DNA of 64,000 nucleotides from Minisyncoccota bacterium (GTDB taxonomy: Bacteria > Patescibacteriota > Minisyncoccia > 2-02-FULL-40-12 > GWA2-44-9), in NCBI GenBank assembly GCA_030583765.1, contig CP129474.1, positions 201,709 through 265,708 on the forward strand. Direction: 5' to 3'. Positions 3,329-48,405 of the stretch are shown here, piece after piece. Positions within the stretch are counted from its first letter, which is position 1. Each line of letters starts with the position of its first letter. Made by a program: the position numbers and the translations under genes. A model generated the notes under the pieces. The model was given only the letters and a program-made list of their open reading frames with translations, did no database searches and was not told where the DNA came from.

Positions 3329-3341
3329 AGCTTGTAGCAGT

Positions 3342-4721: not shown

Positions 4722-4762
4722 TGTAAAATCAATAAAAATATGGTATGGTATAAGTCGCAAAT

Positions 4763-31825: not shown

Positions 31826-32979
31826 AGGTGTAGCGCCTTTATCCATGCCTCACGCATACGCGCCTCATCATACAAGCGAGCCGTTGCCTTTCCCGCCTCA
31901 CTCATGTGTGCGCGAAGCTCTGGCATATCCCATAGCGCACGAATGGCTTCGCGGAGATTGAATTCATCATTGTACTTTACCATCAAACCATTCTCTCCCT
32001 GCGAGATAATTTCGCGATTGCCGCCGGCCGTGGTCGTAATCACAGGAACGCCCGCAGCCATCGCCTCAATGATCTGATGCGAGAATCCTTCATATCCTGT
32101 GTTAAGCACGAAGAGATCTGCCGCAGCGAGATACGTCGGGAGCTCTTCATGGGACTTCGCTCCGACAATAAACACCTTCTTCTCCAAACCAAGATTTCTA
32201 GCCATGGTACGAAGTACATCGCGCTCAGGACCATCACCCACGATCACTAATCTGAAAAACTGATTAAGCTCGAGAAGTTGCGGCATGATTTTGATGAGCA
32301 TGCGAAATCCCTTCCAAGGAACTAACCGGCCGACCGAAACAATAAGTGTCCCCGGGATACCGATTCGCGTACGTGCATCTTGCTGCGAGATCTCTGATGG
32401 TGAAAATGTTACAGCGTTGGGCACAATCACGATACGCTCGGAATCGTACCCCCATCCCTGCACAATAGATTGTAGGTATTGAGATGGCACAACCACCTGA
32501 GCACTACGACGCACAACCCACCGCTGTATGCGGCGAAGCATACCCGCCCAACCACCTATCTGCACACCCTGAAAATCATCAATGAGAAGATGCGTGTGGC
32601 GCTTTTGTATTGCATATTCCCATGCATAGTCTCCAGCAATACGCACCGTTACTGGAATGCGCCGCAACATGCCCGCTATATGTGCGGCAATTCCAGGCGT
32701 TTTTCCCGAAAGCGCCAAGAGGTGGGTCGCTCCTGCACTTACCCACCACACCCGAAGCGCGTAGAGGATATGGCGCACCATCCAAGGCCACCAGCGCGAT
32801 ACACGATACACCTCAATACCCTGCTCCTGCTGACCCCGCCCAAATGCCACCACGCGCACGCGTACCCCACGCTCATGAAACGCACGCGCTACCGCATGCG
32901 CAACGGTTGCTGGGCCACCTATATCAGGGGGATAAATGCCAGTTGCGATAACAAGAAGTGGTTTCTGTTCGTTACTCAT
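31822..32979 (-). CDS. GT4 glycosyltransferase
   Basis: N-terminus LLVIATGIYPPDIGGPATVAH. C-terminus YEGFSHQIIEAMAAGVPVITTTAGGNREII. Start at MSNEQ (32979). Confidence 0.75.
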   Translation of the reverse strand: MSNEQKPLLVIATGIYPPDIGGPATVAHAVARAFHERGVRVRVVAFGRGQQEQGIEVYRVSRWWPWMVRHILYALRVWWVSAGATHLLALSGKTPGIAAHIAGMLRRIPVTVRIAGDYAWEYAIQKRHTHLLIDDFQGVQIGGWAGMLRRIQRWVVRRSAQVVVPSQYLQSIVQGWGYDSERIVIVPNAVTFSPSEISQQDARTRIGIPGTLIVSVGRLVPWKGFRMLIKIMPQLLELNQFFRLVIVGDGPERDVLRTMARNLGLEKKVFIVGAKSHEELPTYLAAADLFVLNTGYEGFSHQIIEAMAAGVPVITTTAGGNREIISQGENGLMVKYNDEFNLREAIRALWDMPELRAHMSEAGKATARLYDEARMREAWIKALHL

Positions 32980-33677
32980 GAAAAAAATGACGCACGAATG
33001 ATGTGCCATATTGCCGCGACACCGTCGGCCCATTGAATTTTCTTTCCTTCTGCATACGTGCGACCTCGATACGAAATCCCCACCTCATATATACGGAGTT
33101 TTTGCTGAGCTACCCGTGCTGTAATCTCCGGCTCAATGCCAAAACGAGCCGCGCTGAGATGTGGCAGAATGCGCATGAGTGCATCGCGCGTAAAGACTTT
33201 GTATCCCGTTTCCATATCAGAAAGATTGAGCCCCGTGCACATATTTGAGAGAAATGTGAGGAAGACGTTTGCAACATAGTGAGAGAAGTAGAGCGCACGA
33301 CGCGGGAATGCAGAAATAAATCTCGAGCCGTAGACCACATCTGCATCGCCAGCAAGAATGGGCTCAAGAAGGAGCGGGTACTCTTTGGGACTATATTCTA
33401 AATCTGCATCCTGAATGAGAATGACGTCTCCAGAAGCTTTTGCAAAACCAGTGCGGACCGCGGAGCCCTTCCCCAGATTCTGCGCGTGGCGCACCGTAAC
33501 CCATCCCGGACGCACATGATGTGCAATGACCCGAGCGGTGTCATCAGTTGACGCATCGTCAACAATCACAAGCTCCTTCTCCCATTCCGGCAGGACAACT
33601 GCATCAATGGCCGCAAAAAGCTTCGGCAATGTGGCGGCCTCATTAAATACGGGAATAATAATGGAGAGCTTTTTCAT
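32976..33677 (-). CDS. GT2 polyprenol-monophosphate hexose synthase (Dpm1/GtrB-like dolichol-/undecaprenyl-phosphate mannosyl- or glucosyltransferase)
   Basis: MKKLSIIIPVFNEAATLP...VIVDDASTDDTARV...ILIQDADLEYSP is the canonical Dpm1-like GT2 catalytic core. It is short and soluble, as Dpm1-type synthases are. Confidence 0.75.
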   Translation of the reverse strand: MKKLSIIIPVFNEAATLPKLFAAIDAVVLPEWEKELVIVDDASTDDTARVIAHHVRPGWVTVRHAQNLGKGSAVRTGFAKASGDVILIQDADLEYSPKEYPLLLEPILAGDADVVYGSRFISAFPRRALYFSHYVANVFLTFLSNMCTGLNLSDMETGYKVFTRDALMRILPHLSAARFGIEPEITARVAQQKLRIYEVGISYRGRTYAEGKKIQWADGVAAIWHIIRASFFS

Positions 33678-34795
33678 GCCAAAGTATCGTACACTGCAGC
33701 CATGCGCGGGGCAATAAGGCTCCAAAGATACTCTTGAGAGACCATGCGTTGTGCTGCAGACACAACAGCATCTCGCTCAGCGCCCGATTGCGCCGCACGC
33801 ACCAGAGCGCGCGCCACAGAGGGGATATCATCGGGATCACATACGAAGCCTGTCACGCCATCGTGCACAAAGTCGCGTAGCCCCCCACGTCGCGAGGCAA
33901 CGACAGGCACGCCCGCAGCCATCGCTTCAAGAAACGCGATGCCCTGTCCTTCAGATCGAGAAGGCCGCGCGTAAACATCTGCGGCCCCTAGTTCCTGGAG
34001 CACGTCACGGTGGCTCACGGGCCCGCGCCAGACGATGCGATCATGAAGGCCGAGACTTTTTGCCAACGTTTTCAGCGCGTGGGCATCCTCTCCAGTCCCG
34101 GCCAAAACAAGACGCCACGGAAAGGAAAGTGTTGCACACGCACGAATGAGAGCATCGATGCCATTCTTTGCGACAAGACGACTTGCGGAATATATGCACA
34201 CTTCATCAGCACGCACTCCCCACGACTCACGCAATTGAGCTCGCTCTTGAGCAGAGCACGTGGGCGCTGCGTCGACTCCATTAGGAATCAACACGACCTT
34301 TGCATCATGGCGCACGTGGCGTGCATAGGTCGCAAGAGGAGAGCTAATTGCCGTCACCACATCTGCATATCGTACCGCAAGCCATCGGCCAGCCCGGACA
34401 AGAAAAGATTGCCGGCGAAAATCGGCGCCCTCTTGGAGCGTGAGGACAAGTGGCGTGCCGGAAAAGAGCCGTACCACCAACGCCGCGAGAGCTGCATATG
34501 ACGCCTGGTACGCATGGAGTACCGAAGCGTGGCGCGCCTCCCAGAGACCCACAATCGCACCGAGCACCAAAAAGAGATACTTATCAAGCCACGCGATACC
34601 AAGACCGATGCGATAGATCCGCACATTGTCGTACGTTTCTCTAGCGGGAAATGTCAGCGAATGGCGCGGCGTGAGCACCACAAAAGAACGCTCAGACATA
34701 TGGCGCATAAATGCCTCGAGGGCCAATTCCGACCCGCCAATAAGGGGTCGGAAAGCAGGGGAAAAAACGAGAATATTGCTTGCTGAATGGGTCAC
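33674..34795 (-). CDS. GT4 glycosyltransferase
   Basis: SRSEGQGIAFLEAMAAGVPVVASRRGGLRDFV motif. First gene of the translationally coupled minus-strand GT operon. Confidence 0.75.
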   Translation of the reverse strand: MTHSASNILVFSPAFRPLIGGSELALEAFMRHMSERSFVVLTPRHSLTFPARETYDNVRIYRIGLGIAWLDKYLFLVLGAIVGLWEARHASVLHAYQASYAALAALVVRLFSGTPLVLTLQEGADFRRQSFLVRAGRWLAVRYADVVTAISSPLATYARHVRHDAKVVLIPNGVDAAPTCSAQERAQLRESWGVRADEVCIYSASRLVAKNGIDALIRACATLSFPWRLVLAGTGEDAHALKTLAKSLGLHDRIVWRGPVSHRDVLQELGAADVYARPSRSEGQGIAFLEAMAAGVPVVASRRGGLRDFVHDGVTGFVCDPDDIPSVARALVRAAQSGAERDAVVSAAQRMVSQEYLWSLIAPRMAAVYDTLA

Positions 34796-34842: not shown

Positions 34843-36039
34843 ATGCCCCACGAATCCTCGGCTTTAATCCGTATTCTGTGCATCATAACCCAGTCTGATA
34901 TGGGCGGAGCACAGCGTTTCATCAGCGAACTTGTGACGCATAGCGATGCACAGCGTTTCACATTCTCTGTTGCCGCAGGTCCTGATGGCAATCACGCATT
35001 GCGCAATGCGCTCCCAGAGCGCGTTGCGTATCGCCCCATTTCGTCTCTACGTCGCGCAATTGCGCCATGGCACGATCTACGTTGCATCCGAGATATCCGT
35101 GAACACATCCTCGCGGAGAAGCCTGACATCCTGTTCCTCAACAGCTCTAAGGCGGGTATTCTTGGTGCCATAGCGGCGCGCTCATGCAGAAAAGCCCTCC
35201 CTCACATGCGCATTGTGTATCGTATTGGTGGTTGGCAATTCCGAGATCCCATCCACCCGCTTCTCCAAACGACATACCGAACGCTTGAGCGTTGGTCTGC
35301 GCGCTGGAAAGACGTCATAGTCGTTAATAGTGAATCAGATCGCGACGCTGGCATCACTCACCACATCGCGCCACGAAGGGAGCTCATAGCCATTCACAAT
35401 GGCATTGATCCCTATCCAACAACGTATACGAGAGCAGAAGCCCGTGCGCACATTGCTGAAGCAATACAAATACCGATCTCGGATACCACAACTCTCATTG
35501 GCACGATTGCGAATGCGTATCCAGCAAAGGATCTGCCAACATATATTCGTGCCGCCCTCCACTTTAATCCTCAAGCGCACTGGATCATTGTCGGAGACGG
35601 ACCGGAACGCCCCGCGCTTGAACAACTCATACGCCGCTTAGATCTACAATCCCGCGTTCACATCATAGGCCAACGGCAAGATGCTAAAATGCTCATTCCC
35701 GCATTTGACGTTTTCGTGCTTGCCTCAGTGAAAGAAGGGTTTCCGTGGGCGCTCCTTGAAGCAATGGCTGCTAAAGTCCCCAGCGTTGCAACGCGTGTTG
35801 GTGGCATTCCGGAAATTATTACCGACGGCGAAGACGGCTTACTCGTTGAGCCACAAAATCCAGCAGCACTAGCGCAGCGCATACACACGCTCGTTGCAGA
35901 AGAGCGACTCGCCCACGATATTGTCATTGCCGCCCATCAGCGGATCGTCACGCGCTTTTCGCTCCAGAGCATGATCGCCGCGTACGAGCGCCTTTTTATA
36001 ACCCTTTTGCGCGAGCAATCTCCTGCGGGATCAAAATAA
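34843..36039 (+). CDS. GT4 glycosyltransferase
   Basis: N-terminus IRILCIITQSDMGGAQRF. C-terminus SVKEGFPWALLEAMAAKVPSVATRVGGIPEII. Confidence 0.75.
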   Translation: MPHESSALIRILCIITQSDMGGAQRFISELVTHSDAQRFTFSVAAGPDGNHALRNALPERVAYRPISSLRRAIAPWHDLRCIRDIREHILAEKPDILFLNSSKAGILGAIAARSCRKALPHMRIVYRIGGWQFRDPIHPLLQTTYRTLERWSARWKDVIVVNSESDRDAGITHHIAPRRELIAIHNGIDPYPTTYTRAEARAHIAEAIQIPISDTTTLIGTIANAYPAKDLPTYIRAALHFNPQAHWIIVGDGPERPALEQLIRRLDLQSRVHIIGQRQDAKMLIPAFDVFVLASVKEGFPWALLEAMAAKVPSVATRVGGIPEIITDGEDGLLVEPQNPAALAQRIHTLVAEERLAHDIVIAAHQRIVTRFSLQSMIAAYERLFITLLREQSPAGSK

Positions 36040-37462
36040 GCGTAGAGCTGTCACGAAATACTTCCTTCCAGCGCGTGTCGCTCGCCATGCGCTCTAAAAA
36101 TGTACGAGACCAAGGAGTGAGATCCCTGTGCGACCACACAATCATTTGGATATTCCAGCGAGCACGCTCCTCCTCCCACACCGCAGCATTTTCTTGCATG
36201 GGGATATACACTGACGACGCAAAGTCGGAAGGATATGCCTCTGGCCGCCCATCTACAAATACTTTTTCTTCAGGAAGCTTCCAAATTAAAAAGCTACCAA
36301 TATCAAAATTATTAAACAGAGGGCCCTTTAATTCATGAGCCCGAATAAAATCAACTGCCGCCTGCGCACCAACGGGCACATGCACACCGAATTGTTGCGG
36401 TAGACGGGCAAGCGGGAAGAACTGCCCACTGATAACGCTGATGCCTATAAGTATAATGAGCACTCCGGAAATCCAAAAGCCTTGGCGCAGCCGCACGGGA
36501 TGCTGTTGGGCAAGTGCTCCAAGCGCCGCAATCCCCGCGAGCCCAAAAATGGCATAGTTTCGGATCATGATCTGCGCGAATATAAACGTTATCACCGCTA
36601 AGGCTACTGGCCCCACAACATGGCGCACCCGACTGCCGGCAATAAGACTATAGATACATACGCAACTGGCAAGCACAAACAGCATCACCGTAGTAATCAT
36701 CGGATACCCCCACGCTAAAAGAAAGAACGGGCCCTTATTCTCAAGCACTGAGTAGCCATATCCGGACATGATCTGTAGCGGATAGAGAGCGCCAGAAAGC
36801 CCCCACGGATTTACCAGCAGAGCAAGCGCCAGCGCGATACCAAGAGGCAACCACTGGCGAACAGACTCACGCCACAAAGGAAAAGCACGCACCACATCAC
36901 CCATCACGATACAGAGATATATAAGGGGACCCATAAAGAATGTGATGTGTGTATTCACCCATACCGCCTGCACCAAGGGGAGCGTCCAGCGCAATGAACT
37001 CCGCGGATAACGCAGGAGCACAAACAAGAACCACCCCATAAAGAGGTAGCTAAATATCTCAGGCCGAACATCGGTTCGCTCTAACATAACCCCCCATGCC
37101 ACAAGGCCTGCGAAGCCCATGAGATACGCTCCGTCTCGTCGCCAGGCACTTGCTAATGCCAGCATAAAAGCAGTGGCCAGAATCAGGGCTTTTATGGGAA
37201 TGAGCCCCGGAACGCCGTTAATGCCCGAAAGCCAATATAAAAACACCTCACCCAGCCAGTGGTGATTAAGGAATGGCTGGTCGGGATGCGTGAAGGAAAA
37301 AAGGTTCGTCGCGGGAACCGAGCGAGTTGAAGTAATAATCTCTCCAAGACGAAGATGTCGCCCGATATCTTGATTGATCGAGGTGAGTGTATGAATGCTC
37401 GAGAGCGCCATGAGCGCCCCAAGTAAAAGAATCAATATGCTATAGCGAAGCTTTGACATCAT
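35996..37462 (-). CDS. Polytopic integral membrane protein, uncharacterized family (paralog A1 of 41602..43371); candidate membrane glycosyltransferase
   Basis: About 12 predicted TM helices plus a C-terminal soluble segment. It shares motifs with the gene at 41602..43371 (GRHLRLGE/FHLRIGE, NHHWL/NHEWL, VWVNTH/FWANTH). Confidence 0.45.
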   Translation of the reverse strand: MMSKLRYSILILLLGALMALSSIHTLTSINQDIGRHLRLGEIITSTRSVPATNLFSFTHPDQPFLNHHWLGEVFLYWLSGINGVPGLIPIKALILATAFMLALASAWRRDGAYLMGFAGLVAWGVMLERTDVRPEIFSYLFMGWFLFVLLRYPRSSLRWTLPLVQAVWVNTHITFFMGPLIYLCIVMGDVVRAFPLWRESVRQWLPLGIALALALLVNPWGLSGALYPLQIMSGYGYSVLENKGPFFLLAWGYPMITTVMLFVLASCVCIYSLIAGSRVRHVVGPVALAVITFIFAQIMIRNYAIFGLAGIAALGALAQQHPVRLRQGFWISGVLIILIGISVISGQFFPLARLPQQFGVHVPVGAQAAVDFIRAHELKGPLFNNFDIGSFLIWKLPEEKVFVDGRPEAYPSDFASSVYIPMQENAAVWEEERARWNIQMIVWSHRDLTPWSRTFLERMASDTRWKEVFRDSSTLILIPQEIARAKGL

Positions 37463-39216
37463 GGTTGCGGCAATACGTCCTCGAGCGCACGCTGCAATCG
37501 CGGCGTAGTGATGCCCGCCCCTAGCGCTCGCGCATCTTCAGTGCGACCTTCTGCGTGCGCGAGCAGCGCCCGTGCAAATGTAAGCTCGTCAGGGACCGCT
37601 CGCGCCGCGTGTGTATCTAATAATACACGCGCTGCATCAGTATCCCCAAGCGCAATGTGTACAAGGGAGAGGTACCACACTTCACTCCAACGTGGGTATA
37701 CGGCTAACGCATCGGAAAGCACCGCACGCGCGTCTACAAAATAACCCGCATCATAGTACAGCGCTCCAAGGCCACGATACGCATTGAGATAATCAGGACG
37801 AGCCTGTATCGCTCGCTTCCAGAACCCCTCAGCAGCCGTGTAGTCACCTTGGCGTTGCGCGATAGCGCCCGCAAGATTCAACGCTGGAGCATGCTCCGGA
37901 GCTTTAAGTAGTACCGCGTCAATACGCGAGCGTGCATTTGCAAGGCGCTCGTTTTTGAGATCGAGATACGCCATATTCGTTTGATTCACCACGCTCTCTG
38001 GCTGTGCAGCAAATGCGCTCTGGAATAATGCTTCTTCTGAAACCCATACACCCGAACGCTGGAAAGACACAATCGCATACACCGCTATCGCCGCGATTCC
38101 CCCAACCCGCACTATACGAGGCCATTGCTCATACATGCGCATACAGACGCCAGCGGCAAGAAGTGAAAGCCCAGCAGAGGGAATATACCACAGTCGCTCT
38201 GCGAAGATCGTACCAATAGGCACAATGATATTCGCCACAACGAGAAGAGGAAAAAGAAAGAGCGCGCCCGCATATCCATACAGCGTGTTTCGATAGCGCA
38301 CGACGGCAAGGATCGCACTCAATATAATAAGGGCACCTAGCAGGCTACCAAACCACGACAGCGATGAAAAGACGCTGTATGAATAGTCGGACGAAAGCGA
38401 GAAAGGCGCCCATACCCGCGCGAAACCCTCCCACACGACGCGCAGCGCCATAGCAACCCCAGTGAGCCATGAGGGCGCATGCGCAATTGCGTTATAAACC
38501 ATAGACGCATCAGTAGAAAAAGCATACTCACCTAACACCATAATGCGAATCCCCAGAAAGAGGGCGAGCGCGGCAACGTGCCAACGCATTGCCATCGCGA
38601 TATCCCTCATACCGACCCCCCGATACCACAGCATCACCCCAAGCACCGGGAGGACTGCAACAGCAGTTTCTTTGGATAAGAGCCCTGCAAGGAACAAGAG
38701 AGCAGAAAGAAAAGATTTTCTGGAAAGTCCCGCTATGATGGCGCCTAGAAAGCCAAGTGCCATCATGAGCTCCGCGCGCCCGACGATAGAAGCGACCGCT
38801 TCTACATGTATTGGCAATAGAGCGAAAAGGAGTGCCGTCGCCCCAGCAATGCGAGGTGTAGACAGCATACGAACAAGCACAAATACTGCGGTGATCACTC
38901 CTGCATGCAGTACAAGGTTCACTACGTGAAACGAAACAGGCCCATCCCCAAAGAGCCACGCATTCAACGCGTACGAAAGAATAGTCAGGGGCCTATAGAG
39001 TCCCGTGCGCGGTTGGTATGCATGGTATGAGGTACTAAAAATGCTTCCCACGTCAGGAACGCCTCCGATCAGAGGGTTGCCGACGATGACAATGCCGTCA
39101 TCAAATACAAATGCGCCGCCGATACTCGGCGCAAAGAGCACCACGGAAAGCGCAAGGGCTGTCAGAAAGACAGCCCAGGGGGTTCGTGCTACCAATGCGC
39201 GCTCAAAAAATGCCAT
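37459..39216 (-). CDS. PMT/TMTC-like GT-C-fold membrane protein with C-terminal TPR repeats (paralog B1)
   Basis: N-terminal multi-TM region with first-loop acidic motif AFVFDDGIVIVGNPL (compare the PMT VFDEVHF DE motif). The C-terminal ~200 aa is TPR (YRGLGALYYDAGYFVDARAVLSDALAVYP...). Confidence 0.55.
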   Translation of the reverse strand: MAFFERALVARTPWAVFLTALALSVVLFAPSIGGAFVFDDGIVIVGNPLIGGVPDVGSIFSTSYHAYQPRTGLYRPLTILSYALNAWLFGDGPVSFHVVNLVLHAGVITAVFVLVRMLSTPRIAGATALLFALLPIHVEAVASIVGRAELMMALGFLGAIIAGLSRKSFLSALLFLAGLLSKETAVAVLPVLGVMLWYRGVGMRDIAMAMRWHVAALALFLGIRIMVLGEYAFSTDASMVYNAIAHAPSWLTGVAMALRVVWEGFARVWAPFSLSSDYSYSVFSSLSWFGSLLGALIILSAILAVVRYRNTLYGYAGALFLFPLLVVANIIVPIGTIFAERLWYIPSAGLSLLAAGVCMRMYEQWPRIVRVGGIAAIAVYAIVSFQRSGVWVSEEALFQSAFAAQPESVVNQTNMAYLDLKNERLANARSRIDAVLLKAPEHAPALNLAGAIAQRQGDYTAAEGFWKRAIQARPDYLNAYRGLGALYYDAGYFVDARAVLSDALAVYPRWSEVWYLSLVHIALGDTDAARVLLDTHAARAVPDELTFARALLAHAEGRTEDARALGAGITTPRLQRALEDVLPQP

Positions 39217-39219
39217 AGG

Positions 39220-39786
39220 CTAAAACGCCACGTCGACAACAATCGAACCACTACACTTTGCCTGCTTCACCACCACGTTGCCATCAATAACCTGCCCGTA
39301 ACCAACCTCCGCTCCAAGTGTATAGCGCTTCGCAGGGTTTGCCGGAAGGGCCACAGTAATGTCAGATGACCCGCTCGGAAGATTAAGTGACTCAAAAATA
39401 TTAGGGCCAATGTTGAGCCCACCCGATGGAGTTGTCTTCCACACGATGTTGCGCCCTCGACTATCAATATTCTCCCAAGAGATGCGGGCATCTCTTAACT
39501 CGTACGTATCTTTGCTCAAAAACCGGACAGACCCCTCAAGTTTGCATGATGCTGGCGCCTTGAGTCCTGTTGGTCCAAAAAATGGAGTTGTCGTTGGACG
39601 CGGTTTTTCTGAGGGAGAGGGCGAGCTACTCGGCGACGGAAGAACGCTCGGACTTCCTGAAATGCTCGGCGATGGAGACGCTTCTATGCGAGCGTCATTC
39701 CAGCGTACAACCCCCCACGCGAGAGCAAGCACAGCCCCCGCAATAACCGAACCTACAATAAGTGATTTCTGCATATAAGGCATCAT
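39220..39786 (-). CDS. Small membrane-anchored secreted protein with a Ser/Pro-rich linker (candidate glycosylation substrate)
   Basis: An N-terminal TM anchor, then SPSPSISGSPSVLPSPSSSPSPSEKPRPTTTP, then a beta-rich ~120-aa domain. Confidence 0.45.
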   Translation of the reverse strand: MMPYMQKSLIVGSVIAGAVLALAWGVVRWNDARIEASPSPSISGSPSVLPSPSSSPSPSEKPRPTTTPFFGPTGLKAPASCKLEGSVRFLSKDTYELRDARISWENIDSRGRNIVWKTTPSGGLNIGPNIFESLNLPSGSSDITVALPANPAKRYTLGAEVGYGQVIDGNVVVKQAKCSGSIVVDVAF

Positions 39787-39795
39787 AGCAAGCTC

Positions 39796-41580
39796 CTAGA
39801 GAGAGCTCAACTCCTTCTCAATGAGGGCTCGAATCTCGCTCCCCGGCGCCGCTAGGGAGAGCCCCTTTTCTAATGCCGCGAGCGCCTCCGCCCTATTCCC
39901 GATCCTTGCCTCAATGCGCCCTAAATTCAGATATCCGATAGGATGGGAGGGAAGGAGTTCAACCCACTTTTGTATCATCGTGCGGGCAAGCGCCAAATCA
40001 CCCTCTTTTGCAGCAATGCTGGCGAGTCCCTCATATGCATAGGGAAAGGCGGGGTCAATGGCAACGGCCTTTTCAAATGCAGCTCGCGCGCCATAGATAT
40101 CGTTACGGGCCAAAAGAATACTCCCGATATTATAGTGTGGCTGTGGGAAGGTATCTTCGGCAGCAACCGCTTTCCAGTAGTACTCTTCAGCGCGCGCGTA
40201 TTCACCTCGATCGTAGTAGATGTTGCCGACATTGTTGTTAATGCGCGCACTCTGTGGCTCATAGCGAAGAATGTCTAGATAGAATGCGAGCGGATCTCCC
40301 CACAGACGATTGCGCTGGATCGAAAGTATGCTGAACACGATGACAGCCACCACAAACCCTGTAGCCATGAGTGGGCGCACCCACGTAAACATATTCCGTT
40401 CCCATATACGCCATGCGGCCCACGCGCCTGCGGTAAGTGGCCCCACCATCGCAAGGTAGAGCCAATGTTCATAGATCAGCGCGTTCACGGGCGTAATGCC
40501 CGAGGTCAACGCCATGCAGGAGAAGAACCACCCCAGCGCAAAAAACAAAAGGTGCGCGCTGTTCGGGCGGCCCTCCTCAACGGTTCGCAAGCGTCGCACC
40601 AATATGACACAGAGGCCAATAAGCGCACTCACAAAAAGTACCGGGATCAGGACGGGTAGCTGCAAAATGTGCGTGTAGACCACCGCGGAACGCTCCATGT
40701 GCAATCCAAGAGGCCACAAGAACATCGATGCATATTCGGTCAGCAGCGACGCAAAGGTCATGAGTCGGACAAACACACTCTCCGTATATGGATTGCTCTG
40801 CGCAAAGAAATTAAGTGTATTTTCAAAATTTAAAACCGTAAGGCGCAATATGCCGTACACCAACGAAATGCCGAAAAACGGCCAGAGGTAGCGCGCCACC
40901 CCCACAATCGCCTGTCGCACCGATCCCACCGCAACAAACGAAAGAAAATACACTGAAGCAAGGAGGGGGAAGATAACTGCGGTCTCCCTACTTAAGAGCG
41001 CAAGCACGCTTGCCACCATGGCGCCGATATACCAGCGTCGCGCATGTGTTTCACGGGCTTTCAGAAGCATCCAGAGCGCCGCAAGCATGCCGAAAACATG
41101 GAGAGGATCTCCGCGACCGGCAACGTATGTCACCGCCTCAGTTTGGAGCGGATGCAACCCAAATATCGCCGCAACAACAAAGGGGATAAAGCGCTTCTGA
41201 AAGGCGCGCTCTAGAAGCAAGAACACAAGCACTACATTCGCAATGTGGAGTACGTTGTTCACAAGGTGATACCCAAAAGGAGCCGCACCGTGGAGCACAT
41301 AATTTATGGCGAACGTAAAGAATAAGAAGGGGCGATAATAGTTGCTCTGCAGACCAATACCGGCAAGCGTATTGTGCGAAAACCAAAACGTAATAGTGTC
41401 CCACGAGATAGAGTGCACCGCGGGATTGTTGACGATCCAATCAGTATCATCCCAAAACAAGGGATTTTGTAAGTTTGTTGCGTATACAAAAAATACCGAA
41501 ATGCAAAGACCGAGAATCATGAGCATGCGGGTGCGTTGTTGTGCGGATGATCCCAACATAGGCAAAGATAAGTATGCCAA
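39796..41580 (-). CDS. PMT/TMTC-like GT-C-fold membrane protein with C-terminal TPR repeats (paralog B2)
   Basis: First-loop motif LQNPLFWDDTDWIVNNPAV parallels B1. Multi-TM core. C-terminal TPRs (NNNVGNIYYDRGEYARAEEYYWKAVAAEDTFPQPHYNIG...). Confidence 0.55.
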   Translation of the reverse strand: MAYLSLPMLGSSAQQRTRMLMILGLCISVFFVYATNLQNPLFWDDTDWIVNNPAVHSISWDTITFWFSHNTLAGIGLQSNYYRPFLFFTFAINYVLHGAAPFGYHLVNNVLHIANVVLVFLLLERAFQKRFIPFVVAAIFGLHPLQTEAVTYVAGRGDPLHVFGMLAALWMLLKARETHARRWYIGAMVASVLALLSRETAVIFPLLASVYFLSFVAVGSVRQAIVGVARYLWPFFGISLVYGILRLTVLNFENTLNFFAQSNPYTESVFVRLMTFASLLTEYASMFLWPLGLHMERSAVVYTHILQLPVLIPVLFVSALIGLCVILVRRLRTVEEGRPNSAHLLFFALGWFFSCMALTSGITPVNALIYEHWLYLAMVGPLTAGAWAAWRIWERNMFTWVRPLMATGFVVAVIVFSILSIQRNRLWGDPLAFYLDILRYEPQSARINNNVGNIYYDRGEYARAEEYYWKAVAAEDTFPQPHYNIGSILLARNDIYGARAAFEKAVAIDPAFPYAYEGLASIAAKEGDLALARTMIQKWVELLPSHPIGYLNLGRIEARIGNRAEALAALEKGLSLAAPGSEIRALIEKELSSL

Positions 41581-41601
41581 GCAACAAGCGTCAGCGCAAT
41601 C

Positions 41602-43371
41602 CTACGGACGACCGAGCCACAGTGCGCTCTGTCCAGCGTGTGTGTGGGCCATACGACGAGCATAATCGCGCGCAGCTGTATCCCCAAGCACGTCGTAACA
41701 TTCAGCAAGCTTCCGATACGCAACTCCTCGCGCAATGCTTGAACCCGTCAGCGGCAACCATGTGTCTCGCGCAAGGTCGCATCGCCCAAGTGCTTGGAAG
41801 AACATACCCAGACGCATACGCGGCAATACCGCATCCGGTGCTCGCTCGAGCACGCGTGTATATTCGCGTAAAAGCTCTGGAATACGTGCCTCGGGAATTT
41901 TACGAAGCGTTGCTTCAATGGTGTCATTGATGTGCGTAATGGAAAGCGCATAGCGTTCTATCAGCGTGGCATGCTCTGGAATGCGTTTTACAAAAATCAT
42001 GCCGAAATTATCCCAGTAGACAAGCGCCCAGTCTGCACGCGTCGAAAGCATATATGCGAGCGATTCCCACGGGCGCACGAGCGCGCTTGTGAACTGGTAG
42101 CGTTCCAATATTTCATCTACGCGCTCTCCTTGTGCGAACGCCACAGAGTCTTGAAGTGGGCCGTCGTAGAAACATTCGCACCCGCCCCATAAGAAGACGT
42201 TACGCTCGGGGTAGTGGGCGAGCATATAATTCCCCCATGTCATCGTGTGATACATGCGAGCATCTCCGGGCACATGAGTATCTGCGAAATGTATGAGATC
42301 TCGTGGCCACACGGCATAGGGATCTCGCAACCCCGCCCCTGCACGCCATCCGAAAAAGAGAACAACGCAGATCGCGCACGCAGCACACACCCACTCCCAT
42401 CGCACGAGCACGCGCAGGTGGGTCATCGCGCGAAGAGCCATAGGCAGCAGTACGAGCCACGCAAAAGGAATGTACTTCATGGACACCCACGGCATAAGCC
42501 AAAAACCAACTGACAGACCAAGCGTTCGGAATGCACGATTCTCAGAGCGAAAAGCATACCAGAGCGCAAGCGCCCCCAACACTATATGCATCACAAAAAT
42601 AAATACGCCCTGGCTCGTGCCCATATGGGCGGTAAGTGGCATTGTCTCAAGCAGTGCCGCAAATACACCGGTTTGTCGTAATGGTTGGAGGGCATACGTA
42701 TAGATCGAAGCGCCGAGAGGATTTGCAAGCGTCGCTAAAAATCCGACGCCCAAAGAAGAAAAGAGGATAGTCTTTGTCCGAGAAGATACATGGGACAAAT
42801 TCCCCCACACCGTATCAAGGATGAACGCTAGGCCAACTCCAAGCGCGAGAATGATCGAAGCATGCGTATTCGCCCAAAAGAAAAGCGTGCCCACAAGGAG
42901 CGCGCCCCATCGCCATGATGCATGCGCAAAGAGGCGCTCCAGCACAAAGAGCATCCCCGCCAATCCTAGGTATGCAAAAAGTTGCGGGCGGGGAGTGATA
43001 AAAGGCGTCAGCGCTCCGGCAACCAAAACAAAAAGAAGCGCCGTGTGTCCCGATAGTCGCCCGCCGCGCCATGAAAGCGCAAGAACCGCCGCGCCACAAA
43101 ATGCAGAAAACCACGCCACAAGAGGCCACTCGCCTATGCGCCACACCAACGCGGCAACGGCTTGGAATAACCACTCGTGGTTCTCCCATGCCGCACCAAA
43201 GCGCGAAAAAGAAAATGATTCAGTGCGTATAAAAGATCCTTGCTGAAGTAATTCTTCGCCAATACGGAGATGGAACCACGTATCAGCATCGGGGGCCACA
43301 GGAACAAGCATGGCTATAACCAGCAATGCGCCAACAACAGAGATCACGATGCGCTGACGTAACGAGATCAT
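41602..43371 (-). CDS. Polytopic integral membrane protein, uncharacterized family (paralog A2 of 35996..37462)
   Basis: Multi-TM with the same motif set as A1, plus a C-terminal soluble region with TPR-like helices. Confidence 0.45.
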   Translation of the reverse strand: MISLRQRIVISVVGALLVIAMLVPVAPDADTWFHLRIGEELLQQGSFIRTESFSFSRFGAAWENHEWLFQAVAALVWRIGEWPLVAWFSAFCGAAVLALSWRGGRLSGHTALLFVLVAGALTPFITPRPQLFAYLGLAGMLFVLERLFAHASWRWGALLVGTLFFWANTHASIILALGVGLAFILDTVWGNLSHVSSRTKTILFSSLGVGFLATLANPLGASIYTYALQPLRQTGVFAALLETMPLTAHMGTSQGVFIFVMHIVLGALALWYAFRSENRAFRTLGLSVGFWLMPWVSMKYIPFAWLVLLPMALRAMTHLRVLVRWEWVCAACAICVVLFFGWRAGAGLRDPYAVWPRDLIHFADTHVPGDARMYHTMTWGNYMLAHYPERNVFLWGGCECFYDGPLQDSVAFAQGERVDEILERYQFTSALVRPWESLAYMLSTRADWALVYWDNFGMIFVKRIPEHATLIERYALSITHINDTIEATLRKIPEARIPELLREYTRVLERAPDAVLPRMRLGMFFQALGRCDLARDTWLPLTGSSIARGVAYRKLAECYDVLGDTAARDYARRMAHTHAGQSALWLGRP

Positions 43372-44639
43372 GATTGCGGAGCAACGCGCCAGATAGCACC
43401 AGCGGCATCGTCAGAAATATACAGCGCACCATCGGGACCAAACTTGAGATCAACGGGCCTCCCAAAGAGCTTGCCGTCACGCAACCACCCGGTAATAAAG
43501 TCACCGGAATCACTCACGTTACCTTTCGCATCCACGGCGAAGCGCACCACCTTATACCCTGTGGGCGTACTCCGATTCCATGAGCCGTGATATGCCACCA
43601 GTAATTGCCCGCCGAGTGAGCCCCAGCCCTTCGCCGGAACAAATGCAATACCCAAAGGCGCTGAATGCGCAGGAAGCTCAATCGCCGCGGGAATAGTTTT
43701 TGCACAATCAGTTTGAATATCCGTTCGCGAGAATCTCCCTGGGTTAAACTTCGTATCACGCACCCGATCACCATAACAAAACGGCCATCCATAGCTCTGC
43801 TCTGAACGAATAATGTTTACTTCGTCAGGCGGAAGATCGTCTCCCAAGTTGTCGCGACCCATATCGGTGCCCCATATTTCTTTCGTTATGGGGTGAAATG
43901 TAAAAAAGACCGTATTCCGCAAACCGCCCGCAAACTCTGCAGTATACGTGCCCTCAGGGTCCGCTTCGAGTAATGACCCGTATTTCCACGTCGCCTCTTC
44001 AACGCACACATCACACGAAGAGCCGACCGTTGCATAGAGCTTTGTCTCACTCAAAAATCCTGAAAGTTTTGGCGCTCCAGGGCCACTCACGATCTCATTT
44101 TTACGTAGCTTTGGCCCAAAGGCGATTGTGCGCGTCACGTGCCTCCCGCCAACAGGAAATGACATGATCTGCTCTCGCTTCGCAGTGTTGGTAATACTGC
44201 CCGTTGCGAGATCATAGGGATACCGCCACACACCACGCTCCTCCGCAATGTAGATAAAAGTCTTTTTTGCGTCGTTCGTATAAAACGCAATCCCGTGGGG
44301 ATTCGTAAGGCCAGCCATAAGCACCGTGCGGGCCTCAGCGCTCCCATCGCGATTTGTATCATCAAGGCGCGTGATGCGTCCTGCTTTCATCTCACTTACC
44401 ACCATGCGGCCGCGCGGATCAAACGCAATGGCGCGTGGTCCTTCAAGACCCTGCGCAAATGCGCGTGCGCCAACAGTTGGAGGAAGCGTGAGGAAATCAG
44501 CAGAGCCGTCGGCAGGAATTGGTGTCGGTTCTGGCACCCGATACCCGACCCAATAAGCGATACGCATTGGTCCAACGATAAAAATAGCGGCAATGAGCAC
44601 CGCAACAATGCCGACACCTATAAGAAGCTTTTTATGCAT
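43368..44639 (-). CDS. PQQ-dependent sugar dehydrogenase (GSDH/YliI/sorbosone dehydrogenase family beta-propeller), N-terminally membrane anchored
   Basis: N-terminal TM segment. GSDH hallmarks HSAPLGIAF, VAYHGSWNRSTPTGYKVVRF, GRPVDLKFGPDGALYISDDAAGAIWRV. Confidence 0.75.
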   Translation of the reverse strand: MHKKLLIGVGIVAVLIAAIFIVGPMRIAYWVGYRVPEPTPIPADGSADFLTLPPTVGARAFAQGLEGPRAIAFDPRGRMVVSEMKAGRITRLDDTNRDGSAEARTVLMAGLTNPHGIAFYTNDAKKTFIYIAEERGVWRYPYDLATGSITNTAKREQIMSFPVGGRHVTRTIAFGPKLRKNEIVSGPGAPKLSGFLSETKLYATVGSSCDVCVEEATWKYGSLLEADPEGTYTAEFAGGLRNTVFFTFHPITKEIWGTDMGRDNLGDDLPPDEVNIIRSEQSYGWPFCYGDRVRDTKFNPGRFSRTDIQTDCAKTIPAAIELPAHSAPLGIAFVPAKGWGSLGGQLLVAYHGSWNRSTPTGYKVVRFAVDAKGNVSDSGDFITGWLRDGKLFGRPVDLKFGPDGALYISDDAAGAIWRVAPQS

Positions 44640-44667: not shown

Positions 44668-44705
44668 GATGCAACAAAAACCAAACCCCGCCCTTTCAGG
44701 CGGGG
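44668..44705 (-). terminator. Rho-independent terminator downstream of the giant surface-protein gene
   Basis: On the minus strand: CCCCGCC-TGAAAGG-GCGGGG stem-loop followed by TTTGGTTTTTGTT, 40 nt after the stop at 44746. Confidence 0.6.
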
Positions 44706-44745
44706 TTGGCTCTTGATGAGTGCTCGTGAGAGCGCTCATTTCAGA

Positions 44746-47700
44746 TTACTGCGCGGTGAACTGGTAGCCACTCATCGGCAGGTTGCGCAAGAAGCCTTGC
44801 GTCGACGCAACGTCAGCATCCGAAGATGAGTTCGTTGAGTTATCAACCCACTGAATCAAGCTGTCCTCGTTGTCACGCAATACGAGCTGGAAGTAGTCCG
44901 ATGCAACGCCAGAGCTGGTGTTGGTCGGCGTGTTGAAGCCCGTGATGGTGTCCAAGTAGACCCTGAGGGTCTTCGAGGTACCGCCCGTGATTTCAACGTC
45001 CTGGCTCGAGAAGTCGATCGTCATGCTTGCACCCACGGATGGGTTCGAAGCATTCGTGATCGTACCGGTATCAACAATCGTTCCAACTTCATCGCGAACG
45101 GTGAAGGTGGGACTTGCGGTACCAGTGGCACCAGATGCAACGGTATCGAATTTAATCGAACCGGATGCAGTTGCGGTGTTGTCGAAGAACAAGCGGGAGT
45201 CCGAGAGACCCTTTGCCGTGATGGTAAAGGTCAAGACTGGATCAACCGTTGAGAGCTTCGTTGCGGTTGGAGCAACAAGTGCAAATTCTGGGAATACGCG
45301 GTAGATACGCGTACTGCGGCCGGCGTCTGCCAAGTCGCGATTTACAATGTTGGAATCCGAAGCATCAATCGTGACACCGGATTCGCCGGTTGCCTTGAAG
45401 ATGCTTGTCGCGCTTACACCCGCCCCATGGTCACCAATGAAGGCGAGATCCCAAACTTTGCCGGAGGTTGCACCCTCAGCCTTAGTCATGTAATCCACCT
45501 TAAGGATGATATCGAGCGAGCTGTCTTTCGCAACATACGGACGATCATTGTCAGCGAAGCCGCTGAATGACGCTGTTGCGAGAGCACCATTGGATGATTT
45601 CGTGATCTCAGAGCCAGCCTTGTTCTTGTACGTGATGTACATATTCTTTGCGTTTTGGGCAAAGTCGGTCTTCTGAGTTCCGTGGTCATCTTCACCAAAT
45701 GTGATGGTGTCGATGTAGTAGCCTTCGTTTGCCGCTGTAAAGCGCCATACGCCTGCTACATCACCATTTTGACCCCAGTACACAGAGTGCTTCTGTGGAG
45801 AGTCGGCTGTGTTTGTAGCAACTGTTAGAGAACCTGAGTTCTTGACAGTCACTATTGTGGTCGGTGACGTACCACCATTTGGATCAGCATTGCCTGCGTT
45901 TACCTGGCGAGATGAATCATCAAGCGCGGTAACATCAGTCGTTGCATCGATGTCGAACGAGAAGTAGTCACTGCCTGATGCGCTCGTTGCATTCGCGCCA
46001 AGGTTGACACGAACTAAGAGCGTCTTTGTTGCACCAGCTGGGATATTCCAGTTCATGTTATTGAACGAGACCTTACCAGTGGTCGCTGAGAGCGAGGATG
46101 CCACACCCGAAGCGATCGGGTTCGTCATGTTTTCGCTATCGTAGAGAGCAACCGAGCTAACGAGGTTAGCAATAGTGATCCCCGTATCAGGCGCTGGAGC
46201 AGTGCCTGCCCCGAAGGTACCAGCAACGCCAGAGTCAGAAACATAGCCCGTGAGGGAGATGTCCGTCACCTTAAGCGCTGAAGCCTGGGAGGCCTTGAAT
46301 GTGATGCCGACGGCGTCAACATTACTGGTTCTGCGTACAAACGTCTGACTATTTACTGAGCCGAGACCAAGCGTCAGTGAAGAAGCCTGGATCGTCAGCG
46401 CTGGACCCGCCATATCAGATTGCGGAACGATGTCTGCATCTGCTACCGCGGTGTTGGTGCCCGCATACTTCATGACAGTGATGTCAGGAGTATCGTCGGT
46501 GAAGTTGTCCAAGAATACCTGGATTGCATCACCAGCTGCGAGCGCAGTACCGGAGCGGCTGTTTGCCGTCTTGATGTCTGCAGTGACCTTGAAGTTGTAG
46601 GTTTTGCCTGCAACGAGATCGTAGGTGTCAGTAAAGGTCTTCTGTGCACCCGTTGCGCTATCTTCACACGTGCCCGAATCGGACGTGGTGAAGGCCGAGC
46701 CATCCTGAGGACCCATAACCGTTACGCCGGTGTCCTTGTTGACGACCTTGAAGTCATCGAGGTCTGCCCAACCGTTGGTGGTGTCTGCCGCGTTTGCGTA
46801 AGAACCATCAGCACCAGGATCATGACAGAGCGTGAACTCCGTCTTGCGAACTTCGATGTTGCTTGCGGCAGTCATCGAGTACTCAAGCAAGGTGGTGTCG
46901 GCTGTATCCGTACCAATGTTTGCTGAGCTCAACGAAGACGAAACAATCGTAAGAACGCCACCCTGGAGGGTTACGTCGAACGCTTCCGCTGCGGAGTCCA
47001 TGTCGGAGATCGTTGCGGCCATACCAAAGCCGTACTGATCACCGATCGCAAGGATATCGGTCGAATTTTCGAAGTAGAGGTTTACGTCCTCATCTTTGCG
47101 CCCGCCAAGATCTGCATAGACCTTGAAGACCTGCTCACCACCCTTCACGATAGAGAAGCCAGAACCAAGATCAAACACGAGATAGCTGTCGCTCGTCATT
47201 GAGCCAGACCATTCGTTCGTGCCTGCCTTGAGCTTGATGTTCGTGATGTCAGACGGCTTGACCGTGCCACCCTGGAACATCGTGATGCGCTTCACGGAAG
47301 CTGCTTCGGTGTTTGCCGTAAGCTTGAATTCCGAGATCTGTGCGCCCTTCTGACCAACCGTCGGGTTCGGGATCGAACCAACCTTGTTCATCGTGATGCC
47401 ACCGCTGTCTGAACCAGAGATGGACATTGTGTTGCCCGTGACTGGCAAACCGCCGACAGAACCCGATGCGAGCATTGCGCCCTTGAGCTCAAAGTAGTTG
47501 ACGTTACCGCCCGTTGCCGAGAGGTCACCAACCAATGAGAGTTCGCGAGTACCGCTCACCGAAAGGTTGAGGTTCGCAAACGTCACTTCACCCGTGGAAG
47601 ATGAGAGCGACTTGCCTGAGGTCAAACGGCGTGCACCTTCGTACACGTACAGGTTGTCGAAATCGTCGGTGGAACCTGCACCCAAGCGCTTGAACGTTAC

Positions 47701-48405
47701 TTCGCTCAATGTGCCCGTGCCCATAACCTTAAAGCGGAGGAACTCAACACCCTGTGCGTTCTTGGTGAGAGTTGCTGATGCTGGGTTGTTCGAAGACAAG
47801 CTGAAGTTTACCGATCCAGAAACTGGAGAGGATGACGGGCTTGCTACGCCACCGCGGGTGTATGCAGGAACCTGCAACACAGAGGAAAATTCTGCACCCT
47901 TGTTGTAAGAGTTGAATTCAGCTGTGTTGATGCAGAAGACCTTCGCAAAGAAGTTCGGGTCATCTGCGACTGCCTGCGCACCGGAGGTGTTTACCCAACG
48001 GAGAACTGCGGTGTCTTCACCAGTAACATCGATACCGTACACCTTCTGATCGCCTGCTTCACAGTTGCGGAAGAGGCCAGAGGTGCCGAATGCATCGCGG
48101 GTTGCTGGCGTGACTGACTTCACATTGGCGAAACCGCCAAGGTGACCGTACATGTTGAAGATTGCTGGGTTCAAGAACAAACGCTTGTACCCGTGCTCAT
48201 TCACAATGTACACGTCCGGATCCGAAGATCCAGCAGCGCTGATAGTGTCGCCTTCCTTAAGACCATAGTCTGACGGCTTTGCAGCCGCGAGTGCTACGCC
48301 AGAGGAAAGGACCAGCGCCATGCCCGTGAACGACAATACTGTCGCTACGGTTGTGAGACCTGCGACAACTCGCTTGAGTGTCACAAGGTTTTTTGAAGTT
48401 AACAT
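44746..48405 (-). CDS. Giant (1219 aa) secreted cell-surface protein, Thr/Ser/Gly-rich with Ig-like/beta-sandwich repeats (S-layer-like/adhesin-like)
   Basis: An N-terminal signal/TM segment (VVAGLTTVATVLSFTGMALVLSSGVALAAA) is followed by ~1150 aa of low-complexity beta-rich sequence rich in T/S/G/V/N. No enzymatic motifs and no obvious sortase or lipobox anchor. Confidence 0.7.
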   Translation of the reverse strand: MLTSKNLVTLKRVVAGLTTVATVLSFTGMALVLSSGVALAAAKPSDYGLKEGDTISAAGSSDPDVYIVNEHGYKRLFLNPAIFNMYGHLGGFANVKSVTPATRDAFGTSGLFRNCEAGDQKVYGIDVTGEDTAVLRWVNTSGAQAVADDPNFFAKVFCINTAEFNSYNKGAEFSSVLQVPAYTRGGVASPSSSPVSGSVNFSLSSNNPASATLTKNAQGVEFLRFKVMGTGTLSEVTFKRLGAGSTDDFDNLYVYEGARRLTSGKSLSSSTGEVTFANLNLSVSGTRELSLVGDLSATGGNVNYFELKGAMLASGSVGGLPVTGNTMSISGSDSGGITMNKVGSIPNPTVGQKGAQISEFKLTANTEAASVKRITMFQGGTVKPSDITNIKLKAGTNEWSGSMTSDSYLVFDLGSGFSIVKGGEQVFKVYADLGGRKDEDVNLYFENSTDILAIGDQYGFGMAATISDMDSAAEAFDVTLQGGVLTIVSSSLSSANIGTDTADTTLLEYSMTAASNIEVRKTEFTLCHDPGADGSYANAADTTNGWADLDDFKVVNKDTGVTVMGPQDGSAFTTSDSGTCEDSATGAQKTFTDTYDLVAGKTYNFKVTADIKTANSRSGTALAAGDAIQVFLDNFTDDTPDITVMKYAGTNTAVADADIVPQSDMAGPALTIQASSLTLGLGSVNSQTFVRRTSNVDAVGITFKASQASALKVTDISLTGYVSDSGVAGTFGAGTAPAPDTGITIANLVSSVALYDSENMTNPIASGVASSLSATTGKVSFNNMNWNIPAGATKTLLVRVNLGANATSASGSDYFSFDIDATTDVTALDDSSRQVNAGNADPNGGTSPTTIVTVKNSGSLTVATNTADSPQKHSVYWGQNGDVAGVWRFTAANEGYYIDTITFGEDDHGTQKTDFAQNAKNMYITYKNKAGSEITKSSNGALATASFSGFADNDRPYVAKDSSLDIILKVDYMTKAEGATSGKVWDLAFIGDHGAGVSATSIFKATGESGVTIDASDSNIVNRDLADAGRSTRIYRVFPEFALVAPTATKLSTVDPVLTFTITAKGLSDSRLFFDNTATASGSIKFDTVASGATGTASPTFTVRDEVGTIVDTGTITNASNPSVGASMTIDFSSQDVEITGGTSKTLRVYLDTITGFNTPTNTSSGVASDYFQLVLRDNEDSLIQWVDNSTNSSSDADVASTQGFLRNLPMSGYQFTAQ

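Follow-up and report, generated by a model that had tools for sequence, protein, structure and literature searches.

The DNA analyzed here is a 64-kb window from a Paceibacteria genome (candidate phyla radiation, CPR/Patescibacteria), to which all coordinates refer, and the subject of this study is a block of five open reading frames (ORFs) within it, A2, B2, X, B1, and A1. A1 (35996..37462, minus strand) encodes a polytopic membrane protein of 488 aa from an unannotated family for which structural models predict a GT-C glycosyltransferase fold. Its paralog A2 (41602..43371, minus strand) is 589 aa long and combines the predicted GT-C core with a C-terminal tetratricopeptide repeat (TPR)-like tail at approximately residues 485-577. 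B1 (37459..39216, minus strand; 585 aa) and B2 (39796..41580, minus strand; 594 aa, with a TTG start) encode a TMTC-like and a TMTC/PMT_2-type putative GT-C enzyme, respectively, each with C-terminal TPR repeats. The central gene X (39220..39786, minus strand) encodes 188 aa with an N-terminal transmembrane (TM) anchor, a Ser/Thr/Pro-rich stalk, and a conserved domain. A preliminary description of this block reported a mirror-symmetric A-B-x-B-A order on one strand with tight 4-bp junctions. The order is real, with A2-B2-X-B1-A1 all on the minus strand, and the junctions are tight, but within the block a 4-bp overlap is found between A1 and B1 alone, while the remaining intergenic gaps measure 3, 9, and 21 nt. 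A second 4-bp overlap joins A2 to the adjacent gene at 43368-44639.

The A proteins had been described as an unrecognized family, and searches of Pfam and NCBIfam were indeed empty. Neither A1 nor A2 matched a PDB sequence, including in a profile search of PDB sequences with 38 members, and the same 38 A-family members scanned singly against Pfam gave no match at E ≤ 10. AlphaFold2 models based on the family alignment were confident for both A1 (pLDDT 92.6, pTM 0.91) and A2 (pLDDT 89.5, pTM 0.87). Foldseek searches of A1 against the PDB at E ≤ 1e-3 returned GT-C enzymes only, namely DPY19 (4e-6), AftA, AglB (4e-5), yeast and mammalian STT3, ArnT, and PglB. The ten best matches of A2 were all catalytic subunits of oligosaccharyltransferases (OSTs), i.e., human STT3A and STT3B, AglB, and yeast STT3, with E-values from 2.6e-7 to 8e-6, followed by DPY19, ArnT, PglB, Emb, AftA, and PMT. 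Matches of either protein at E ≤ 1e-3 had TM-scores of 0.47-0.60 normalised to the query, and every one was a GT-C enzyme. The C-terminal soluble domain of A1 resembled the C-terminal globular domain of AglB-S2 (3vu0 chains A-C) with a probability of 1.0 and TM-scores of 0.52-0.55 normalised to the target, and the tail of A2 matched MamA and designed TPR proteins. No transporter fold was found above a probability of 0.1 in the fold searches of A1 and A2. Judging by these models, A1 and A2 adopt a GT-C glycosyltransferase fold whose nearest relatives are the STT3/AglB/PglB catalytic subunits of OSTs and DPY19. Of the two functions suggested previously for the A family, a second GT-C-like glycosyltransferase is supported and a translocase is left without support.

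The paralogy proposed for both gene pairs was confirmed by pairwise BLASTP. A1 and A2 share 23% identity over approximately 480 aligned residues (E 2e-17), and B1 and B2 share 24% identity over approximately 560 residues including the membrane part (E 7e-25). Two of the sequence motifs given for the A family, NH(H/E)WL and (V/F)W(V/A)NTH, are common to A1 and A2. The third, GxHLRxGE, is exact in A1 (GRHLRLGE) but reads WFHLRIGE in A2, which reduces the common core to HLRxGE. Residues invariant across A1, 36 A1 homologues, and A2 include D32, H36, G40, R133, P134, W168, N170, H172, and G389. Among divergent members, D32, H36, G40, S56, H67/W69, R133-P134, W168/N170/H172, N218-P219, E241, and G389 (A1 numbering) are invariant or nearly so. 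The Asp at D32 in A1 and D30 in A2 is kept in at least 90% of divergent members and is located just past the first TM helix at the start of the first loop helix, which is where GT-C_A enzymes carry their catalytic acid. By analogy, a catalytic role of D32 appears plausible. Hydropathy and the structural model suggest about 11 TM helices for A1, with the C-terminal alpha/beta domain on the extracytoplasmic side.

The A family has in common with STT3/AglB/PglB (CAZy GT66, PF02516) the GT-C membrane core, an acidic residue where external loop 1 begins, and an external alpha/beta domain at the C-terminus, which in A1 is the part that matches AglB. STT3/AglB/PglB proteins, in contrast, have 13 TM helices, whereas A proteins have about 11 and are much smaller (488 aa in A1). 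The C-mannosyltransferase DPY19 (GT98) is the top Foldseek match of A1 (7zli, TM-score 0.60 normalised to the query) and is significant for A2 as well, but identity in the structural alignment is approximately 11% and no Pfam match exists. The donor of DPY19 is a polyprenyl-monophosphate monosaccharide, which would fit the DPMS-like GT2 encoded in the neighbourhood. DPY19 is not known to have an OST-like C-terminal domain and is known from eukaryotes only. The A proteins may work like OST and DPY19 enzymes and be distantly related to them.

Literature on OSTs of Patescibacteria and on STT3-like bacterial families yielded no description of the A family, and the only analogous case was “component 27”, a large dark bacterial membrane family whose models match STT3/PglB at TM-scores of approximately 0.6 (Durairaj et al. 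2023, PMC10584680). Since the proteins of component 27 are annotated as YfhO in InterPro and are longer, with a median length of 665 aa (PMC10584680), they probably represent a different family. The two are set apart by description, as the A family has neither a YfhO nor any other Pfam match, and YfhO (PF09586) in particular gave no match in the 38 A-family members at E ≤ 10. A divergent TMTC was also considered as an identity of A and was rejected. The TPR tail of the A family is homologous to the TPR region of B (hhalign, E 2e-9), but the comparison aligned these tails only and the membrane cores are not detectably related.

The B genes had been taken for TPR-bearing GT-C enzymes, and this assignment stands. 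B2 matched Pfam PMT_2 with 26.5 bits (cutoff 26.1) together with many TPR models. B1 had TPR matches in Pfam but no PMT_2 match and is linked to PMT_2 only via its paralogy to B2, while the B1 orthologue of a related locus (L001) showed a PMT_2 match and a weak TMTC_DUF1736 match. The signature motifs of TMTC proteins are DD in loop 1, YRP, and (K/R)ET (PMC7801869). They are represented by VFDDG, LYRP, and SKETAV in B1 and by FWDDT, YYRP, and SRETAV in B2. Like B1 and B2, TMTC1-4 and PMT_2 O-mannosyltransferases carry an N-terminal GT-C core with these motifs followed by C-terminal TPR repeats; B1 and B2 differ from TMTC1-4 in being bacterial proteins. By these sequence features, B1 and B2 are classed as TMTC-type TPR O-glycosyltransferases that diverged anciently. 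About half of the related clusters contain a member of the B1 orthologous group, and B2 is the more widely conserved paralog with orthologues in approximately 25 related loci.

With at least 16,800 clusters at 50% identity, the A family is very large, and its centre of distribution lies in Patescibacteria. A word-indexed search returned 821 A1 homologues, all of them unnamed or “hypothetical” proteins of Patescibacteria metagenome-assembled genomes (MAGs). Against 1.84 billion cluster representatives (50% identity), the A-family profile gave 40,793 matches at E ≤ 1e-3 and 16,836 at E ≤ 1e-30, and the weak end of the 40,793 may hold TPR-only matches because some A members carry TPR tails. Distant members were also found outside CPR-like contexts. 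The A2 subfamily, on the other hand, is rare, with 9 close homologues among 5.8 billion proteins. Two metagenomic proteins of 915 aa (P0130 and P0132) are natural fusions of a GT87 domain (PF09594) at residues 94-331 and an A module at approximately 435-891. The GT87 hidden Markov model had no match within the A module of these proteins, and GT87 and A are separate modules, which places two GT-C modules in one polypeptide. Many TPA binchicken records carry A homologues as well, and their taxonomic labels look unreliable. One record labelled “uncultured Gammaproteobacteria” (L065) contains two A-family genes close together on the same strand (252-2000 and 3242-5026).

Next to A2 lies the gene of a membrane-anchored GSDH/TrAA12-like beta-propeller (43368..44639, minus strand; Pfam GSDH, TrAA12, and DUF7133) with a TM helix at residues 5-23, which is often found beside an A gene in relatives and is here named GSDH. 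It is the first gene past an intrinsic-terminator-like hairpin (44684..44707, minus strand) with a 10-bp stem, 7 GC pairs, and a T-run, which separates the downstream six-gene run from the gene BIG. BIG (44746..48405, minus strand) encodes a secreted, acidic, Ser/Thr-rich protein of 1,219 aa with an isoelectric point of 4.5, 22% Ser and Thr, 0.3% Cys, an N-terminal hydrophobic signal only, and an empty Pfam search. The gene is equipped with a promoter-like site at 48947-48920 and, in the hairpin at 44707-44684, with its own terminator-like element. Orthologues of BIG were identified in approximately 25 loci, where they neighbour X, B, or A genes. BIG is conserved at the head of the cluster, and the protein is a putative abundant surface or S-layer-like protein. 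Just upstream of BIG, a Lamin Tail Domain (LTD) protein is conserved in several genomes, at 49049-50017 (minus strand) in the window and at 546-1469, 5072-5566, and 2596-3090 in L001, L082, and L083, respectively. It may be a further surface component of the same system.

X has a single TM helix at residues 9-27 and a Ser/Pro-rich stretch, SPSPSISGSPSVLPSPSSSPSPS. Alignment of 17 X orthologues showed a variable Ser/Thr/Pro linker and a conserved domain of approximately 115 aa with a GPN(I/L)F motif and two conserved Cys residues; in the stalk, the Ser/Thr/Pro composition is conserved and the sequence is variable. In the majority of related clusters, X directly adjoins B2. Its role may be that of a dedicated acceptor or of an accessory subunit; since its C-terminal domain is well conserved, an accessory subunit is as possible as a substrate. 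Elsewhere in the window, a 531-aa ORF at 54370-55965 (plus strand) lies in a GC-rich stretch at 54-56 kb (GC 0.61), where several ORFs overlap it on the opposite strand. Its Pfam search was empty. The encoded protein has several TM helices in its N-terminal part and long linkers rich in Thr and Pro (TPTVEATPEPTATPSPPSTPTPEPTAEP; TPTPTPAPT), which make it another candidate O-glycosylation substrate.

On the other side of the block, GT4c (34843..36039, plus strand) encodes a GT4 glycosyltransferase (Pfam GT4) convergent with A1, followed by GT4d (33674..34795, minus strand), a second conserved GT4 glycosyltransferase. The adjacent gene GT2 (32976..33725, minus strand) encodes a small GT2 of 249 aa from the polyprenyl-monophosphate-sugar synthase class (DPMS, ArnC, GtrB, AglJ-like). 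The best PDB sequence matches of GT2 were the Pyrococcus Dol-P-Man synthase 5mlz (E 1.8e-18), ArnC, and GtrB, and its best NCBIfam matches were AglJ (4e-31), ArnC, PpgS, and Dol-P-hexose transferase, none of which reached its cutoff. GT2 is kept in the cluster across relatives and probably synthesizes the lipid-linked donor used by the GT-C enzymes.

The five-gene block forms one end of a glycan-synthesis island of approximately 48 kb. The island encodes a polyprenyl glycosylphosphotransferase (96-1058), a Wzy_C-TPR protein, a Wzx-type flippase, an ABC exporter, approximately ten GT4 glycosyltransferases together with members of GT2, GT8, GT9, and GT11, and sugar epimerases and methyltransferases. 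Rfam and tRNA scans of the window returned nothing. The Wzy_C-TPR protein (1055-3328, minus strand; 757 aa) consists of a Wzy_C domain of the O-antigen ligase or PglL type and C-terminal TPR repeats, and its gene adjoins those of the Wzx flippase and the polyprenyl glycosylphosphotransferase. In a monoderm CPR cell it could be an O-oligosaccharyltransferase or a glycan ligase, and it would then be the third TPR-tailed glycan-transfer enzyme of the window. A homologue of asparagine synthase (glutamine-hydrolysing) and a 2-oxoglutarate-Fe(II) oxygenase are also encoded inside the island (12005-14660, minus strand), which hints at amidated or hydroxylated sugar modifications.

Gene order was compared across 79 loci retrieved with the A profile from GTDB species representatives and five loci obtained via exact-protein look-ups, with the ORFs of relatives labelled by phmmer searches with the window proteins. 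Approximately 30 Paceibacteria loci with A1 identities of 38-83% share BIG, X, B2, A1, GT4c, GT4d, and GT2, with or without B1 and GSDH. The gene set is conserved as a unit in these relatives, but its order is not. The mirror order A2-B2-X-B1-A1 was restricted to the window and two of the 83 related loci fetched (L003 and L005), in which A1 is 81-83% identical. In other loci the order was BIG-X-B2-B1-A1 (L001 and L009) or BIG-B2-X-B1-GSDH-A1 (L007), and BIG and A1 were directly adjacent in L008 and L022. A block of GT4 genes and A1 faced an inverted GSDH/B/X/BIG block in eight loci (L014, L015, L017, L019, L021, L023, L029, and L037). Of the 79 loci obtained with the A-family profile, 77 lacked A2. 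The A2 orthologues in L082 and L083 (42-44% identity) belong to clusters ordered BIG-A2-GSDH-GT2-B2-X-B1-GT4c. One A gene of either type together with one or two B genes seems to suffice. The order in the window looks like the union of two layouts that occur separately in other genomes, one with A1 adjoining the GT4 genes and one with A2 adjoining BIG. As a separate observation, one MAG (JBBUDS01, contigs 24 and 43; L017 and L018) carries two A1-type paralogs, of which one adjoins the GT4 cluster and the second is located a few kb away from GSDH-X-B2-BIG, which resembles the GT4-proximal A1 and BIG-proximal A2 of the window.

An origin of the mirror order by inverted duplication was rejected. 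Because all genes point in the same direction, duplication with inversion cannot explain their order, and identity between the paralogs amounts to only 23-24%. At this level of identity, and with each paralog forming its own orthologous group across many genomes, the duplications are ancient and separate. The B1 and B2 orthologous groups separate cleanly by score, which likewise indicates that both duplications are old. The mirror order is a lineage-specific arrangement rather than a duplicated unit. The earlier proposal of a duplicated functional unit, or of one machine with two specificities, is not supported by the low identity of the paralogs, their separate orthologous groups, and the reshuffled order.

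We consider it rather probable that this five-gene block represents the core of a conserved operon for the extracytoplasmic glycosylation of cell-surface proteins, with the catalytic activity, donor, acceptor, and topology of the A proteins being inferred. The DPMS/AglJ-like GT2 and the neighbouring GT4 enzymes would build one or more polyprenyl-phosphate-linked sugars at the cytoplasmic face of the membrane, and the lipid-linked sugar would then be flipped. Substrates of O-glycosylation by the B enzymes would be Ser/Thr-rich segments, for example the stalk of X, and perhaps Thr/Pro-linker proteins like that at 54370-55965. The acceptor of the sugar or short glycan transferred by the A enzyme would be a surface protein, with BIG as the most plausible candidate, and the TPR tail of A2 points to a protein partner or acceptor. 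Three-component systems of a GtrB-like GT2, a flippase, and a GT-C enzyme (e.g., CsbB/YfhO and ArnC/ArnT) similarly combine a polyprenyl-phosphate-sugar synthase of the GT2 type with adjacent GT-C enzymes. Unlike these systems, the block contains no identified GtrA-like flippase, and several GT-C enzymes of two unrelated families occur in one locus with a putative protein acceptor.

Several results weigh against a protein-glycosylation operon of this kind. The genes found most constantly beside A1 are those of GT4 and GT2 enzymes rather than BIG or B, with GT4c ranking first (adjacent in approximately 26 loci). More distant A homologues, from Microgenomates and similar groups, are located among RuvB, DnaG, EF-G, a P-type ATPase, and a PBP-like gene without BIG, X, or B, and the ancestral acceptor of A may therefore be a general envelope component rather than BIG. 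In the two A2-only clusters (L082 and L083), the absence of A1 applies to the 10 kb checked on either side of A2. BIG contains 11 N-x-S/T sequons against 15.5 expected, and neither BIG nor 12 of its orthologues show an enrichment, a result that does not preclude the use of such sites. At the sequence level, the Pfam, NCBIfam, and PDB profile searches provided no link of A to any characterised GT-C family, and PF02516 (STT3) had no match among the 38 A members at E ≤ 10. An hhalign comparison of a 271-sequence A alignment with PglB of C. jejuni (validated against PDB entries) and C. lari was not significant (E 0.075-0.11).

The best segment of this non-significant alignment placed FNNFDxG...VFxDGR of the A family on WWDYG...LVDGG of PglB. 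The WWDYG motif itself is absent at the aligned position, where A1 reads FNNFDIG and A2 HTMTWG, and the GT87-fused homologues P0130 and P0132 alone read WFDYG. As signs of kinship with STT3, this regional alignment and the WFDYG variant are suggestive but not proof. A further comparison with a mini-profile of the C-terminal regions of STT3A, STT3B, Chaetomium STT3, and PglB produced a meaningless alignment. As the sequence tests for STT3 failed, the A family is classed as a new GT-C family and not as a member of GT66.

The main rival explanation is that A1 and A2, as GT-C enzymes, act on a glycan or lipid-linked polymer instead of a protein. They would use a polyprenyl-phosphate sugar to modify or lengthen a lipoglycan or a glycopolymer of the cell wall, as do YfhO, ArnT, AftA/Emb, and GtrB/GtrA/GT-C systems, with BIG and X as mere neighbours. 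We regard this as somewhat unlikely. AftA, ArnT, and Emb are among the significant fold matches, A1 is most tightly linked to GT4c, GT4d, and the polyprenyl-phosphate-sugar synthase GT2, and BIG is without sequon enrichment. The A family is moreover widespread in Patescibacteria, often in housekeeping contexts without BIG, X, or B, and its fusion to a GT87 mannosyltransferase domain exists. Against this stand the ten best structural matches of A2, all of which are protein-modifying OSTs, the resemblance of the A C-terminal domain to that of AglB, and the TPR tail, a protein-binding module carried by A2 and many family members. A genes also adjoin BIG in several genomes (L008, L022, L082, and L083). 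A bolder version of the protein-glycosylation operon, which we hold to be unlikely, is that A is a true minimal OST of Patescibacteria, a distant bacterial sister of archaeal AglB that glycosylates the S-layer-like BIG from a polyprenyl-phosphate-linked glycan. If true, the AglJ-like GT2 would initiate this glycan and the adjacent GT4 enzymes would elongate it. A1 and A2 would then be alternative forms of the OST, bare and TPR-tailed, respectively, and the locus would represent an archaeal-style surface-protein glycosylation pathway widespread across the CPR.

Two further explanations are considered improbable. The 4-bp overlap of A1 and B1, with similar stop/start overlaps from B to A1 in L003, L005, and L011, and the retention of both A and both B paralogs in three related genomes would agree with A1 and B1 as well as A2 and B2 forming heteromeric complexes of different specificity that act on the central X. 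Most related clusters, however, combine a single A gene with one or two B genes and are ordered differently, and A2 is missing from all but two of the A-profile loci, while A2-only clusters keep both B genes. X also shifts relative to the B genes, and no co-variation of A2 and B2 was seen. The least probable explanation, to which we assign very little weight, is that A1 and A2 are non-enzymatic membrane scaffolds or transporters (e.g., flippases) with a retained GT-C-like architecture. It would account for the lack of an identified dedicated GtrA-like flippase for a polyprenyl-phosphate sugar in the block. Across thousands of diverged sequences, though, there is almost no variation in the first-loop Asp or in a set of polar or charged residues predicted to lie at the membrane boundary, and the significant fold matches are all glycosyltransferases, with transporter matches below a probability of 0.1.

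The mirror gene order that drew attention to the block is of no importance in itself. CPR/Patescibacteria account for a large share of bacterial diversity. The mechanism of their envelope formation “remains unclear” (PMC5220378). New in this respect is a very large family with a predicted STT3/AglB-like fold and clear invariant residues that is captured by no Pfam or NCBIfam model and that in Paceibacteria is tied to a conserved cluster whose products include a candidate for a major surface protein as well as TMTC-like O-glycosyltransferases and a synthase of polyprenyl-phosphate sugars. The cluster provides concrete candidates for protein glycosylation in uncultivated ultra-small bacteria, and the A family offers a new branch for tracing the evolution of oligosaccharyltransferase-like enzymes.

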